From Bacteroidales bacterium (GTDB taxonomy: Bacteria; Bacteroidota; Bacteroidia; Bacteroidales; UBA12077), in the NCBI GenBank assembly GCA_028282585.1, contig JANQHR010000113.1:1-64000 (forward strand): 64,000 bases of DNA. The letters run 5' to 3'. The translations under genes were made by a program, and so were the position numbers. The notes under the pieces were generated by a model, which worked only from the letters and a program-made list of their open reading frames with translations, was not told where the DNA came from and did not search any database. Position 1 is the stretch's first letter, and every line of letters starts with the position of its first letter. Shown piece by piece: positions 51,262 through 56,339 of this stretch.

Positions 51262-51309
51262 CTTCGACAGGCTCAGTATGACAATCTTGTCACCCTGAGC
51301 TTGTCGAAG
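51262..51309. repeat. REP-like inverted doublet with both arms empty
   Basis: CTTCGACAGGCTCAGTATGACA-ATCT-TGTCACCCTGAGCTTGTCGAAG. Confidence 0.85.
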
Positions 51310-51387
51310 GGTGTAAATATTTAGAAGATATTTAAGAGTTATCAAATAGTTTCAAATTAGTGTTTGAAAATTGAAAATTACAAATTA

Positions 51388-51433
51388 GCAGCGTATCGCG
51401 CTGCCCAGCTCGCGCGGATTTGTAATCCGGGCG
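51388..51433 (+). repeat. Short palindrome plus REP-like hairpin
   Basis: GCAGCG-TATCG-CGCTGC at 51388-51404; GCTCGCGCGGATTTGTAATCCGGGCG at 51408-51433. Confidence 0.65.
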
Positions 51434-51663
51434 TTTTATGTAAAAATGAGATTTGTATAATACTAAATCAAAGTATTTTTCATCTTTATGCAGCTTTTCT
51501 ATTTTCTTTATATTTCATTATTTTTTATTGTCTTATAATCAAAATAATACGATAAAAAATGTAAAAATTAACCTATCCTTATCACCCTTTTTTATTTTTC
51601 ATGCGTTTTATCATATAGAAGTGTAAAGGAGGAGTATCAAAAATGAAAAATTCAATAAATAGC

Positions 51664-51695
51664 TTGCATTTATCAGATTTTTGTCTCTATCTTTG
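51664..51695 (+). promoter_or_regulatory. Bacteroidota sigmaA promoter of the met leader
   Basis: TTG at 51664 and TATCTTTG at 51688-51695. Confidence 0.65.
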
Positions 51696-51733
51696 TATAA
51701 AGATTTCAAACATCCTTCACAAAGGGCGTTTGA

Positions 51734-52156: not shown

Positions 52157-53482
52157 ATGAAAAATTTAAAATACGAAACGTTACAAATTCATGCCGGACA
52201 AGAACCTGATCCGGCAACAGGAGCAAGAGCAGTTCCCATTTACCAAACAACATCATATAATTTTAAGGATTCAAAGCACGGTGCAAACTTATTTGCGTTA
52301 AAAGAATATGGGAATATCTATACCCGAATTATGAATCCAACAACCGATGTATTAGAAAAACGAATTGCATCCCTTGAAAATGGCAAAGCAGCATTAATGG
52401 TAGCTTCCGGTCATGCAGCACAATTTATTGCCTTGAATAATATTTTAAGGCAAGGCGATAATTTTGTTGCTTCTCCATACCTATATGGAGGTTCTTACAA
52501 TCAGTTTAAAGTATCATTTAAAAACCTGGGAATTGAAACAAAGTTTGCCAAAACAGATAGAGTAGAAGATTTTGAGCCGCTAATTGATAAAAATACAAAA
52601 GCTGTTTATCTTGAAACCATTGGGAATCCAGGATTCTCTGTACCTGATTTTGAGAAATTTTCGAAGTTGGTAAAGAAATACGATTTACCTTTAATTGTTG
52701 ATAATACATTCGCAGCATGTGGTTATTTATGCAGACCAATTGACTATGGAGCCGATATTGTTGTAGAATCTGCTACTAAATGGATCGGAGGGCATGGAAC
52801 CAGCATAGGTGGAGTTATTATTGATGCTGGAAAATACAATTGGGGGAATGGTAAATTTTCACAATTTACCGAGCCTTCGGAAGGATATCATGGATTAAAA
52901 TACGCTGAAACATTTGGTGAATTAGCTTTTATTATTCGTGCAAGAGTCGAAGGGCTGCGTGATTTCGGTCCGGCTATCAGCCCATTTAACTCTTTTTTAT
53001 TGCTACAAGGATTAGAGACTCTTTCTTTACGAGTTCAAAAACATTTAGATAATGCACTGCTTTTAGCAGATTGGCTAAGCAAAAATAAAAATGTTGAAAG
53101 CGTTTGCTATCCTGGATTAGCAGATGATTCAAATCATAAGAATGCATCTAAGTATCTAAAACATGGGTATGGAGGTGTGTTAGCCTTCGAAATTAAAGGA
53201 GGAATTGAAAAAGCAACACGTTTTGTAGATAACCTAAAACTTGTTAGCCACTTAGCTAATGTCGGCGATGCTAAAACTCTGATAATTCTGCCAGCAGCAA
53301 CTACACATCAACAATTAACTCCAGATGAGCAATTGAAAGCCGGAGTAACACCCGGATTATTGCGCGTTTCGGTTGGTTTGGAACACATTGATGATATCAT
53401 TGCAGATTTTGAACAGGCATTTGCAAGAGCTAGTGTCGAAATTGAACAATCCGATGAGTACGAATTGCCTTTGGCTACCTAA
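52157..53482 (+). CDS. metY: O-acetylhomoserine sulfhydrylase
   Basis: '[10 protein letters not shown]', '[11 protein letters not shown]', '[10 protein letters not shown]', 'HLANVGDAK'. Confidence 0.93.
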
Positions 53483-53499
53483 GTTATTTATTTGTAGAT

Positions 53500-54540
53500 A
53501 TGAAGAAGCATATATTTCAACATACCGGAAAGTTCGTATTAGAAAACGGACAATGCTTGCATGATATTCAAATTACATATCATACGGTCGGAAAATTAAA
53601 TAAAACCAATGATAATGTAATTTGGGTTTGTCATGCTTTAACGGCAAATTCTAATGTAGCAGAATGGTGGCCAAATATGGTTGGCGAAGGATTATTGCTT
53701 GATAAATCTAACTATTTTATTATTTGTGCAAATATATTAGGGTCTTGTTACGGGACAACTGGACCTTTATCAATAAATCCATTAACTGGCGATCCGTATT
53801 ACCATACTTTTCCTCTAATAACTATAAGGGATTTGGTGAAAGCACATGAATTACTCAGAAATAAATTAGGTATTCGTAATATTTATAAACTAATAGGAGC
53901 ATCAATAGGAGGGTTTCAGGCTCTGGAATGGAGTATTATTAGTCCCTCTTTAATTAAAAATCTTGTAATTATTGCAAGTGGTTCTTTTGCTTCACCTTGG
54001 AATATTGCGTTTAACGAATCACAAAGTTTAGCAATTCACGCCGACCCTACTTTTAGAAATAATTATAATAAAGCAGGATCGTCAGGATTAAGAGCAGCAA
54101 GGGCTATAGCTTTACTAAGTTATCGAAATGCAGCTGCTTATAATTATAGTCAACAGGAAACAGAGTTAAATAAACTAGAATGTTTCAAAGCTATTTCATA
54201 TCAAAGGTACCAGGGAGATAAATTAGTACAGCGATTTAATGCCTTTTCTTATAATACAATAAGTAAGGCTTTTAATACGCATAATGTTGGCAGAAATAGA
54301 GGTGGTATTGAAAAAGCTTTAGCAAGTATCAAGGCAAAAGTGCTGCTAATAGCTATATCTTCTGACATACTATTTTATCCGGATGAGATTAAACTAGTCC
54401 ATCAACAAATAAAAGGTTCAAAATATATTGAAATAGAATCATTTTATGGGCACGATGGATTCCTGATTGAGACTAAACTATTAACTAGAACTATTAAGAA
54501 CTTTTTGAATGTTAAAAATCAAAGATTAAAATATGAATAA
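53500..54540 (+). CDS. metX: Homoserine O-acetyltransferase
   Basis: 'CHALT', 'N.LGSCYGTTGP', 'GASIGG', 'SDILF', 'YGHDGFL'. Confidence 0.92.
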   Translation: MKKHIFQHTGKFVLENGQCLHDIQITYHTVGKLNKTNDNVIWVCHALTANSNVAEWWPNMVGEGLLLDKSNYFIICANILGSCYGTTGPLSINPLTGDPYYHTFPLITIRDLVKAHELLRNKLGIRNIYKLIGASIGGFQALEWSIISPSLIKNLVIIASGSFASPWNIAFNESQSLAIHADPTFRNNYNKAGSSGLRAARAIALLSYRNAAAYNYSQQETELNKLECFKAISYQRYQGDKLVQRFNAFSYNTISKAFNTHNVGRNRGGIEKALASIKAKVLLIAISSDILFYPDEIKLVHQQIKGSKYIEIESFYGHDGFLIETKLLTRTIKNFLNVKNQRLKYE

Positions 54541-55720
54541 TAAAATAAATATTGGACTTTTTGGTTATGGAGTTGTAGGCGAAAGCCTTCACCATGTGCT
54601 TAAAAATAGCAAAACTGTTGATGCAGGTGTAAGTAAGATCTGTGTAAAACAAAAGGAAAAAGAAAGGGGCTTAGCCAAAGAATACTTTACTTTTAATAAA
54701 GAGGACATCATTAATGATAAAGACATTAATCTTGTAGTAGAATTGATAGATGATGCTGATGAAGCTTATGATATTGTAAAAAGATGCTTGCAAAATAAAA
54801 AAAGTGTAGTATCCGGAAATAAAAAAATGATAGCTCATCACCTGGATGAATTAATAGATTTACAGGAAAAAAATAATACGGCTTTATTATACGATGCATC
54901 TGCATGCGGTAGTATTCCAATTATCAGAAATATTGAAGAATACTACGATAATGATCTATTGAAATCAATAACCGGAATTTTAAATGGATCTTCAAATTAC
55001 ATTCTTTCAAAAATATTTAATGAAGGTTTAAATTACAATACGGCTTTAAAACAAGCGCAAGTGTTAGGTTTTGCAGAAAGTAATCCCGGTTTGGACGTGG
55101 ACGGATTCGATTCTTTGTATAAGCTAATTATTATTGCAACGCATGCTTTAGGGACTTTTGTTAAACCTAATGAAGTTTTTAATTACGGGATATCAAATAT
55201 AAAAGAGGAAGATATTCAATTTGCACGCGAGAAGAACTTTAAAATTAAGTTGGTAGCACAACTAATAAAATCGGATGATGAATCCTTTACCATGTTCGTA
55301 ATTCCTAGATTGGTTCGTCCTGATAAATACATTTATAATGTTGAGAATGAATATAATGGAGTTGTGATTCAAGGAGAATTTTATGATAAACAATTTATGT
55401 TTGGTAAAGGAGCAGGAGGTTATCCAACCGGTTCTGCTGTGCTTTCAGATATTACAGCCAGGTCGCATAATTATAAATATGAATACAAAAAACAGAAGTA
55501 TTTTAAACGTTTAAAATACAAAGTTGACCATGAAATAGAAATTTATTTAAGATATAATAACGTTGTGGATTTTGGTTATTTCGAATTTGAGTTTATCTCA
55601 GAAAAATATTCAAGCCAAAATAATAATTATGTTGTGGGTAGAATTAGGCTTTCAAAACTTTTGAAATTAAAAACTGTTTTACCAAAACTGGATATATTTA
55701 TGGCTTATATCAGAAATTAA
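54533..55720 (+). CDS. hom: Homoserine dehydrogenase
   Basis: 'GYGVVG', 'NKK', 'GILNGSSNYIL', 'GFAE.NP..DVDG.D', 'GKGAGG.PT.SAV'. Confidence 0.92.
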   Translation: MNNKINIGLFGYGVVGESLHHVLKNSKTVDAGVSKICVKQKEKERGLAKEYFTFNKEDIINDKDINLVVELIDDADEAYDIVKRCLQNKKSVVSGNKKMIAHHLDELIDLQEKNNTALLYDASACGSIPIIRNIEEYYDNDLLKSITGILNGSSNYILSKIFNEGLNYNTALKQAQVLGFAESNPGLDVDGFDSLYKLIIIATHALGTFVKPNEVFNYGISNIKEEDIQFAREKNFKIKLVAQLIKSDDESFTMFVIPRLVRPDKYIYNVENEYNGVVIQGEFYDKQFMFGKGAGGYPTGSAVLSDITARSHNYKYEYKKQKYFKRLKYKVDHEIEIYLRYNNVVDFGYFEFEFISEKYSSQNNNYVVGRIRLSKLLKLKTVLPKLDIFMAYIRN

Positions 55721-55850
55721 TACCAATAGGAAAAATGTAATAGAACATTTAAATCCATCGGCATTAAGCACAATAAATCGAAATTTTTAATTATGCTTAA
55801 TTTGACTTTGATATAAGCTATTTTGTAAATTAGAGTAAAAGTTGTTCAGG

Positions 55851-56339
55851 CTTCGACAGGCTCAGCCTGACAGCTTTAGTTTAATAAAAAATCATTAATG
55901 TCATTCTGAGCCCGCCTGTCCGGCAGGCAGGTTTATCGAAGGATAGACATTCTTAAATAATAAGTATGAAAAAGTATTTCGTTTATATTCTTAAATGTGC
56001 TGATAATTCCTATTACACTGGAATTACAAACGATATCGATAAAAGATTAGTAGAACATAATAATAGTGAAAACAGAAAAAACTAAACTTTTTCAAGAAGG
56101 CCTGTTGAACTTGCTTATGAAGAGTCTTTTCAAAACCCAAATGATGCTATAATGTGGGAAAAAAGAATAAAGGGATGGTCGAGAAAAAAGAAAGAAGCAT
56201 TAATAAAAGGTGATTTTGAGGAACTAAAAAGATTATCAAATCAGAAAAATCACACTTCGACAGGCTTGCCTGCCGGATAGGTAGGCTCCGTGTGACAATT
56301 AAATTGTTGTAATTTCTTGTCGTTCTGAGTTTATCGAAG
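55851..56339. mobile_element. GIY-YIG gene cassette framed by two REP-like inverted doublets
   Basis: Doublets at 55851-55941 and 56255-56339, same family as 51262-51309; no transposase. Confidence 0.6.
55966..56280 (+). pseudogene. Small GIY-YIG nuclease (YhbQ/UPF0213-like) with internal TAA
   Basis: MKKYFVYILKCADNSYYTGITNDIDKRLVEHN...N*TFSRRPVEL...A..WEKRIKGWSRKKKEALI; stop at 56083-56085. Confidence 0.85.

Follow-up and report, generated by a model that had tools for sequence, protein, structure and literature searches.

A dispersed 20-bp palindrome inside the hairpin repeats of a GIY-YIG gene, and a tRNA-lodged nuclease gene as its candidate partner

How does a palindrome of 20 or 21 nucleotides come to lie, at one and the same junction, inside some copies of another repeat and not inside others? 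The question is posed by a stretch of 64,000 nucleotides from a Bacteroidales bacterium (positions 1 to 64,000 of contig JANQHR010000113.1, assembly GCA_028282585.1; hereafter the window), which is contig C61 in a 4.89-Mb assembly of 32% GC and 173 contigs, labelled G000 here. Within positions 51262-56339, a sequence-only reading had described seven copies of a 22-bp arm, three of them with a palindromic insert, and had proposed an ultra-short non-autonomous element that targets another repeat. Our analysis supports this proposal. The palindrome occurs independently of the arms and in both orientations, it is nested within itself, it is precisely gained or lost, and it is tied to one clade of small GIY-YIG nuclease genes; that it moves is what we infer. 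We consider it probable, with some reserve, that the inserts in the window are old, partly decayed copies of a cosmopolitan palindrome whose nuclease home is lodged in tRNA genes.

All seven arms were recovered where they had been placed. Four of them are empty: the forward arms of subtype CAGG at 51257-51283 (22-nt sequence from 51262; local hairpin 51257-51263/51275-51281) and 55846-55872 (from 55851; also present in G038, the closest relative), and the reverse arms at 51288-51313 (subtype CAAG; stem 51291-51296/51308-51313; forming a doublet with the arm at 51257) and 56318-56344 (subtype TAAA). The filled arms are found at 52062-52106 (forward, TAAA), 55899-55945 (reverse, TAAA) and 56250-56297 (forward, CAGG, with CTCCG as the right half). 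Their inserts of 20, 21 and 21 nt occupy the same junction, between TTCGAYARR and CTCAG (CTCCG at 56286). Insert 1 (52075-52094, forward) is a CCTGCC..GGCAGG hairpin with three central changes as compared with the perfect 20-mer described below. Insert 2 (55911-55931, reverse) differs from that 20-mer by one extra base and one change, and insert 3 (56265-56285, forward) is of the same 21-nt subtype and the same arm-relative orientation as insert 2, four transitions apart from it. Subtraction of an empty arm from a filled one leaves the insert exactly, with an ambiguity of at most 1 nt, and both the TAAA and the CAGG subtype do occur filled as well as empty within the window.

What kind of repeat is the host? 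The 22-nt arm sequence is correct, but it is not the full unit, because it is part of a hairpin of 27-33 nt. Each arm is self-contained, with a stem (T)CANNC/GNNTG(A) and a conserved 13-nt loop, TTCGAYARR|CTCA, and the inserts lie inside this loop. Among 114 distinct empty arms, drawn from G000 and the retrieved loci, Watson-Crick pairs are formed at the two variable positions of the stem in 77% and 78%, as compared with 32% and 41% when the partners were shuffled (maximum over 200 shuffles, 45% and 52%); three or four types of pair are present at either position, and the G-T wobbles are not biased towards one strand. Folding with DNA parameters gave local arm hairpins and, for a forward-reverse doublet, a longer hairpin from which the insert branches off. 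A loose pattern detected 12 arms genome-wide, seven of them within the 5-kb stretch of the window, and a further filled arm with an insert of 39 nt is located at C111:55327. In 16 of the 18 congeners the arm pattern matched 0-179 times per genome, and it matched 100 times in a genome from another family, as compared with 0-1 for the reversed pattern; the arm family is real and not due to chance. The arms are not the classical repetitive extragenic palindromic (REP) sequences that the sequence-only reading had taken them for. They are hairpins flanking a GIY-YIG gene, similar to the Ssn/SRM arrangement. In G027, from another family, the arms are modular: CTCAGSCTGACATTR, the right half, is tandemly repeated with a period of 15 nt, and GGCTTCGATAA, the left half, with one of 11 nt. 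Since the two halves repeat separately in that genome, the filled/empty junction is also a module boundary.

The palindrome itself is not confined to the arms. The 20-mer CCTGNCTGCCNNCAGGCAGG was detected in 34 of the 37 congeners, with 1-39 strand-hits per genome and none in the reversed control. Out of 33 distinct flanked sites in the genus, 5 are in arms and 28 in unrelated contexts; four of the five arm-borne copies in this sample are at the junction described above and one is at CTTC|GATAAA. When up to two changes per half and a centre of 0-3 nt were allowed, G000 yielded 43 family loci, against three in the reversed-sequence control, and only three of them are in arms. Three of the G000 copies are canonical and most are decayed, and two 21-nt relatives of the insert subtype found in the window lie outside arms. 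A cross-phylum scan of one genome per species (596 Gb) returned at least 121 stretches, whereas about 17 matches are expected by chance (our own arithmetic, for 18 fixed bases at uniform composition). The 80 listed loci that were examined span more than ten phyla and come from Bacteroidota, many Patescibacteria lineages, Omnitrophota, Planctomycetota, Gamma- and Deltaproteobacteria, Bdellovibrionales, Chloroflexota, Actinomycetota, Nitrospirota and Bacillota, with cultured strains of Gaetbulibacter, Winogradskyella, Flavobacterium and Flagellimonas among them. In viral contigs, 78 stretches in 60 contigs carry the palindrome; no neighbour gene is shared by these contigs, the best protein cluster being found in only 5 of the 60, and no DDE transposase is linked to it. 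Occurrence outside the arms, on which the sequence-only reading had staked its proposal, is seen at the 28 genus sites, at about 40 of the 43 G000 copies, in other phyla and in viral contigs. We regard it as very probable that the window inserts belong to an independent, dispersed 20-mer family.

The palindrome has three main forms. Among 187 distinct sites, 96 have the perfect palindrome CCTGCCTGCCGGCAGGCAGG, and 61 and 10, respectively, have the T..A and A..T forms of CCTGNCTGCCGN'CAGGCAGG. Both asymmetric forms retain the 6-bp stem via a compensatory pair. The flank profile of the 187 sites contains no target duplication, and at 6 of 112 sites the palindrome is nested in its own centre. General targeting of hairpin loops was considered and rejected. 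With perfect stems, 19 of 112 sites lay in loops closed by at least 6 bp, versus 10.3% of controls (Mann-Whitney p = 0.50). With DNA folding of 184 sites, stems of at least 5 bp were found at 15.8% versus 9.0% and stems of at least 6 bp at 10.3% versus 4.5%; for stems of at least 4 bp the Fisher p was 0.09, so that the enrichment is about two-fold at best and does not make a rule. No known RNA family accounts for the repeats either, as Rfam recognised only a riboswitch and a hammerhead-like reading by eye misfit the core. For the solo 20-mer at C116:68036 of G000, no clean empty site was found in five relatives, in which the spacer is too diverged or absent. Four small contigs of G000 (C7:61, C93:3375, C102:169 and C76:2457) carry a repeat in which a CCTGCC..GGCAGG hairpin stands between CTTCGAGAAGAGAGGGAGAA and GAGGGAGAGTCAAAAA, with no empty copy in G000.

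Was the arm junction then hit once or repeatedly? A genus-wide pattern for filled arms (gap of 14-44 nt), which detects only inserts at that junction, listed 57 gap-bearing arms, of which 33 hold a hairpin of this type, 3 hold a nested arm-like hairpin and 21 are tandem half-arm duplications or neighbouring arms. The A..T form occurs on CAAG arms in both orientations (forward in G016, G033 and G042; reverse in G038, G018, G017 and G033), the T..A form on TAAA arms, and the perfect form on arms of the CAAG and CAGG subtypes. The inserts of 39-62 nt have one outer stem in common, on which they are built up as nests, and indels in the centre distinguish G000 from G038 at C111. Because three sequence variants, both orientations and nested forms share one junction, the filled arms do not descend from a single event, in agreement with the earlier suggestion of more than one insertion; by our own count, the sequences point to at least three or four independent events. 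Some filled arms have multiplied as whole units, such as a ...CAAGA variant common to G037 and G042, so the insertion events are fewer than the filled arms. The same hairpin also lies just 5' of (C/T)TCAGAATGACA in another GIY-YIG-linked repeat at 2 of 4 loci, and the purine|CTCAG step was hit in a tRNA-like repeat of G013 (L085) as well. Two palindromes of a second family sit in the same loop of orthologous arms of G018 and G038.

This second mini-palindrome family, (T)CCCGAT..ATCGGG(A), is seen in loops of orthologous arms at L049 (G018) and L332 (G038, C63), and it is also scattered in flanks from other phyla (L072, L080, L153, L161 and L162). At the locus on contig C101, the G038 arm contains a GATAGCTATC-type hairpin and the G018 arm is empty.

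Presence and absence of an insert could be compared between sequencing runs. The whole stretch is present only in the contigs of the probable source run, X1. A run from another study, X2, gave a 446-nt contig (depth 4.5) that spans 56102-56400 with 20 other letters in 277 aligned (~93% alike) and leaves out 21 nt behind 56263 (56264-56284), which produces an exact empty arm. A second X2 contig spans 55553-56118 without a gap, and in it the reverse filled arm with insert 2 and the gene next to it are kept. The search for polymorphism that the sequence-only reading had called for thus shows one window insert precisely absent from a related contig. Gain of insert 3 would be favoured by G015, G009 and G031, whose cassettes have empty forward arms, and its precise loss by the AGG repeats on either side of it. 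Runs X4 and X6 contribute only short and diverged pieces that are uninformative for the arms, and rare variants cannot be revealed by contigs.

What could mobilise so short an element? The perfect 20-mer was first met 18-30 nt from four GIY-YIG genes. In two clades of such genes, C1 (80 aa, MFFVY...) and C2, it is located 18-37 nt upstream of the start codon at 8 of 8 genus loci each, and at none of the 14 loci of other tRNA-linked GIY-YIG clades in the genus. At three C2 loci (L395, L396 and L399, in G013, G012 and G048, respectively) a 17-nt insert (AGCCACGGCTGGTAAAC) is nested exactly in the centre of the 20-mer. Five C2 loci have a second hairpin (CCTGTCTACCGACAGGTAGA) 4 nt upstream. The cassette is lodged in a tRNA gene: its 20-mer splits a leftover 5' piece of tRNA-Arg at the D arm (ACG for C1, TCG for C2), an intact tRNA-Arg directly follows the C1 or C2 gene, and the gene stop lies at the tRNA start in tRNA-lodged cassettes (L367-L378, L387-L399, L421 and L427-L506). 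Repair of tRNA genes by in-silico excision of the palindrome was tried and rejected as a general rule, since only one of 80 loci (L173, of L122-L201) became a detectable tRNA and the rest were tRNA pieces. A WWE3 genome of the candidate phyla radiation has the same cassette with the exact 20-mer on tRNA-Lys, and the homologue matches PF01541 (E 1.3e-13). Among 79 metagenome relatives with sufficient upstream sequence, 59 have the 20-mer within 120 nt upstream (46 exact, 11 near and 2 split copies), mostly 10-37 nt from the start codon. A same-strand tRNA lies directly downstream in 53 of 69 metagenome loci, and the 15 tRNA species include Arg, Leu, Asn, Gly, Met, Lys, Phe and Gln.

The number of copies tends to be higher where the gene is present. 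Genomes of the genus with C1 or C2 average 13.4 strand-hits of the 20-mer, as compared with 5.6 in those without (Mann-Whitney p = 0.004, or 0.014 after removal of the cassettes' own copies, relatedness being ignored in both), and the three genomes with zero 20-mers are without a C1 or C2 gene. No C1 or C2 gene was found in G000, where the best tblastn matches belong to other clades (37-40% identity), and this fits its few canonical and many decayed copies. The earlier statement that no mobilising enzyme is evident thus stands for this genome; elsewhere it gives way to a candidate, the tRNA-lodged 80-aa GIY-YIG nuclease. The clade-C nuclease may be the mobilising partner of the 20-mer, a plausible assignment that we make tentatively.

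Such a partnership could work as follows. The constant home of the palindrome is the 5' flank of a single-domain GIY-YIG gene of ~80 residues lodged in a tRNA gene, and solo copies are dispersed through genomes, much as NTS/SRM hairpins are around Ssn nucleases. By analogy with SsnA on NTS, the clade-C nuclease might act on the extruded, single-stranded 20-mer hairpin. Its cuts, together with host repair or copying, would lay copies of the palindrome at breaks or exposed single strands. In the genus, solo copies would have entered the 13-nt arm loop on three or four occasions at the least. This target is possibly favoured for its stability and exposure as a hairpin loop and for its purine|CTCAG step, and the filled arms would then have been inherited and sometimes multiplied as units. 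Because G000 is without a clade-C nuclease gene, its copies would be fossils.

Several points weigh against this account. No transposition step is among our observations, and GIY-YIG nucleases are not known as DNA-joining enzymes. The flank preference is weak, with C at 57% and T at 26% of the +1 positions of asymmetric copies and T at 5% of the -1 positions. The link to the gene is incomplete in both directions: 20 of the 79 metagenome relatives are without the 20-mer within 120 nt upstream, and G033, G018 and G039 have 11-16 strand-hits with no C1 or C2 gene detected (G018 is 88% and G039 78% complete). The pattern for filled arms sees one junction only, the unbiased figure for site specificity is four of five arm-borne copies, and part of that specificity is the copying of filled arms, given that arm and insert subtypes are correlated. 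The X2 contig with the 21-nt absence has a depth of 4.5 only, AGG direct repeats flank insert 3 so that precise deletion of the palindrome is as likely as insertion, and the four transitions between inserts 2 and 3 exceed what a recent copy would lead one to expect from the 7-9% divergence of X2.

Some of these points are shared with the alternative that survives best, although we hold it to be rather unlikely. It dispenses with a dedicated enzyme. The palindrome would spread by template switching in replication or by short-patch gene conversion between hairpins and be lost by slippage at short flanking repeats, and within the locus insert 2, in the inverted partner arm at a distance of 340 bp, would have been the source from which insert 3 was copied. 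That inserts 2 and 3 are of one 21-nt subtype in mirrored arms agrees with such copying, as do the lack of target duplication, the CAGG end common to CAGG arms and the element, the AGG repeats at insert 3, the self-nesting and the centre indels at C111, and the excess of junctions in loops closed by 6 bp or more. Against it stand one exact 20-mer in unrelated flanks across phyla, which mere copying errors would not predict, and the tight association of this 20-mer with one nuclease clade, and 20 nt provide very little homology for conversion into sites without a palindrome.

A second possibility, which we consider improbable, is a REP-like palindrome moved on single-stranded DNA by an HUH (Y1) enzyme of the IS200/RAYT type. 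By our own count from the listed rows, 26 of the 37 congeners have strong Y1_Tnp genes, of which two are in G000, and the mean number of 20-mer hits is 9.9 in genomes with a strong Y1_Tnp and 4.7 in the rest; insertion without duplication is compatible with HUH chemistry, and at two Y1 loci the hairpin upstream of the gene itself encloses a nested 20-mer-like hairpin. Yet a 20-mer is missing within 1.5 kb at 28 of 30 Y1 loci, the Y1 genes carry their own, different flanking hairpins, a constant tetranucleotide beside the element is absent, and G032 and G033 reach 11-13 hits with no strong Y1 gene. As to these other hairpins, IS200-like genes at L097 (G000, C9) and L113 (G040, C21) are flanked by CCGYC..GGCGG hairpins, the G040 hairpin holding a 20-mer-like insert in its loop, and CCGCCAGCTGGCGG-type hairpins adjoin 20-mers in other phyla (L136, L137 and L146).

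It is very improbable that the arm is a structured DNA or RNA motif in which the insert forms a variable helix, an additional stem that some arms have and others lack by descent. The fixed position of the insert in the arm loop, the covariation of the N/N' positions (C-G, T-A and A-T), lengths from 18 to 42 nt, the correlated arm and insert subtypes and the unchanged insert 2 in G038 would all suit a helix of this sort. The same 20-mer in dozens of unrelated contexts and phyla largely refutes it, as both orientations in arms and different palindrome families in the same loop of orthologous arms also speak against it, along with the absence of an Rfam match and arm-stem wobble pairs without strand bias. 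Equally remote is a selected, immobile protein-binding or terminator site, for which the perfect operator-sized palindrome and its fixed distance (mostly 10-37 nt) upstream of the clade-C start codon, possibly an autoregulatory one, could be cited, but which is at odds with 0 to 39 strand-hits among congeners, with copies inside other repeats, tRNA fragments and themselves, and with the decay of the G000 copies.

The reading of the inserts as copies of a nuclease-associated palindrome brings a second small nuclease gene into view, namely the one that the arms flank. It is a GIY-YIG gene, too. At all seven genus loci of the arm-linked subfamily the 3' end of the gene enters a forward arm, and a reverse arm lies upstream in six of the seven. 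The arm-linked protein (102 aa in G009) matches PF01541 with an E of 1.9e-17, and its nearest solved structures are the UPF0213 proteins 1zg2 and 1ywl, which the 20-mer-linked protein likewise matches. We take UPF0213 to be a CDD subfamily other than cd10448. The copy in the window (55966-56280, forward) is a UPF0213-type pseudogene with an in-frame TAA at 56083-56085; it lies between two filled arms, and its 3' end enters the forward one. Hairpins of the type GTCATTCTGA..GAAGAATC flank the genes of a second GIY-YIG subfamily in like manner, and one such subfamily-B-type hairpin is located at 52014-52038 (forward) and is conserved at this place in G018.

The spacer in which this pseudogene lies differs among relatives. 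In G038, with 85-89% identity in the flanking genes, it consists of the empty forward arm, a spacer and the filled reverse arm with an identical 21-nt insert, directly followed by metH. The 398 bp at 55942-56339 of the window, comprising the GIY-YIG gene and a forward-arm/reverse-arm unit, are absent there; the direct repeat TTTATCGAAG stands at the bounds of this segment, at the reverse-arm end, and a hairpin-flanked cassette has here been cleanly gained or lost. About 2 letters in 95 of the retained arm region differ from G038, as compared with ~13% in the flanking genes. In G015, G009 and G031 the gene is present at this hom-metH locus and the arms are empty, and further species have different palindromic repeats or nothing at the site.

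All these repeats are set in a methionine operon. An Rfam search of 50000-57500 (E up to 1) gave a S-adenosylmethionine (SAM) riboswitch at 51732-51850 as the only match. It is followed by genes whose names were read from their translations, namely a metY-like gene (52157-53482), a metX-like gene (53500-54540), a hom-like gene (54533-55720) and a metH-like gene starting at 56366, with the repeat cluster in the spacer between hom and metH. The riboswitch-metY leader is also variable, and the G018 arm orthologous to the arm at 52062-52106 contains another palindrome, CCCGATAGCTATCGGG, in roughly the same part of the loop. Between the riboswitch T-run and the repeats, ~125 nt at 51880-52005 are conserved in the genus at 77-84% with a shared end, ...GATTAATGTCTTTCCGAA. 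The G038 leader (L047) is separated from metY by an ORF of ~1.4 kb that appears aspartate kinase-like by eye. At 51385-51440 the window has a repeat ACAAATTAGCAGCG..CGCGCGGATTTGTAAT with 29-40-nt matches, 92-97% identical, in G016, G037 and contig C105 of G000. Spacers or leaders at this operon in G008, G011, G015, G042 and G018 (L035, L041, L042, L034 and L037) contain GTCATTCCGG..CCGGAATC hairpins, which resemble the NTS/SRM hairpins of Chenal et al. and may also be the UYCCGG long-stem 'selfish' motif named in PMC11109978.

What does the locus teach? How short palindromic repeats such as REP, NTS and GC clusters multiply is a long-standing open question. Four properties of the 20-bp unit make the question of spread directly testable: its consensus is defined, its filled and empty sites are clean, its landing place in the loop of another hairpin is reproducible, and its specific candidate enzyme is of a purifiable size. 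The palindrome seems to be among the smallest mobile DNA elements so far recognised. It is unusual in being nearly invariant across phyla at 20 bp and in sitting inside the hairpins of another such system, so that hairpin repeats of one GIY-YIG system can lie within those of another, and such repeats reshape operon leaders and spacers, in this case a SAM-riboswitch leader and the hom-metH spacer. The boldest version, a trans-mobilised 20-bp element, the smallest in bacteria, spread across phyla by a tRNA-resident, 80-residue GIY-YIG single-strand nuclease and invading a rival GIY-YIG/hairpin system, we hold to be doubtful; if true, it would be a case of parasitism of one nuclease-repeat system on another, which may disable the host repeat. 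Searches with strings of 15-20 letters of the palindrome found no paper, bioRxiv supplements and subscription journals lying outside the search, and no published description of a tRNA-lodged GIY-YIG cassette with such a palindrome was found, the only relevant paper being Chenal et al. 2025.

Among known systems, miniature inverted-repeat transposable elements are likewise short and non-autonomous with inverted repeats; the 20-mer differs from them in having no target-site duplication, no internal sequence and no linked DDE transposase, and in its total length of 20 bp. The mobile GC clusters of yeast mitochondria and the palindromic elements of Rickettsia are short, GC-rich palindromes of 30-150 bp, restricted to their lineages and with no enzyme known. 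They resemble the present element as GC-rich palindromes in an AT-rich genome (here 32% GC) that insert into each other and elsewhere, whereas the latter is 20 bp long, near-identical across phyla and tied to a nuclease gene. The REP/REPIN and RAYT systems, among them the GTAG/CGTC-tagged REP superfamilies (Di Nocera et al. 2013, PMC3733652), share with the repeats described here imperfect, dispersed palindromes of 20-40 bp, often in inverted doublets, an enzyme gene flanked by its own repeats, and insertion without target duplication. The differences are that the arm-flanked gene encodes a GIY-YIG and not a Y1 protein, that nearly all Y1 loci are without the 20-mer, and that copy numbers are in the tens and not the hundreds. 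The 20-mer has no GTAG or CGTC head such as tags those REP superfamilies, and the arms carry TGTC.

The nearest system in print is that of the Ssn nucleases with NTS/SRM hairpin repeats, in which, according to Chenal et al. 2025 (PMC11893778), a GIY-YIG gene is flanked by a scattered hairpin repeat and SsnA binds its hairpin and cuts nearby, in single-stranded DNA only. The SRM motif given there, HGTCWYN(0-2)YYVSBRHN(0-5)WNVSBRGN(0-2)RNCYNB, was tried and rejected as a description of the arms, as none of the seven window arms fits it and the genome has 2 matches versus 3 in the reversed control. The passages of that paper on the Ssn family describe no repeats within other repeats and do not demonstrate a route by which NTS spread. 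The 20-mer departs from the published type in having no GTC head, in lying on one side of its gene only (upstream), and in that its partner gene is lodged in a tRNA gene whose 5' piece is duplicated. The arms have a TGTCA head that resembles HGTCWY, and they lie 3' of their gene in 7 of 7 loci and upstream of it in 6 of 7. The protein sizes, 102 aa for the arm-linked protein (in G009; the window copy being a pseudogene) and 80 aa for the 20-mer-linked one, accord with the single domain of ~90-100 residues given for Ssn. Both the arms with their UPF0213-type gene and the 20-mer with its tRNA-lodged gene thus share the plan of the Ssn/SRM system as set out there, a single-domain GIY-YIG gene of ~80-100 residues accompanied by a short, scattered hairpin.

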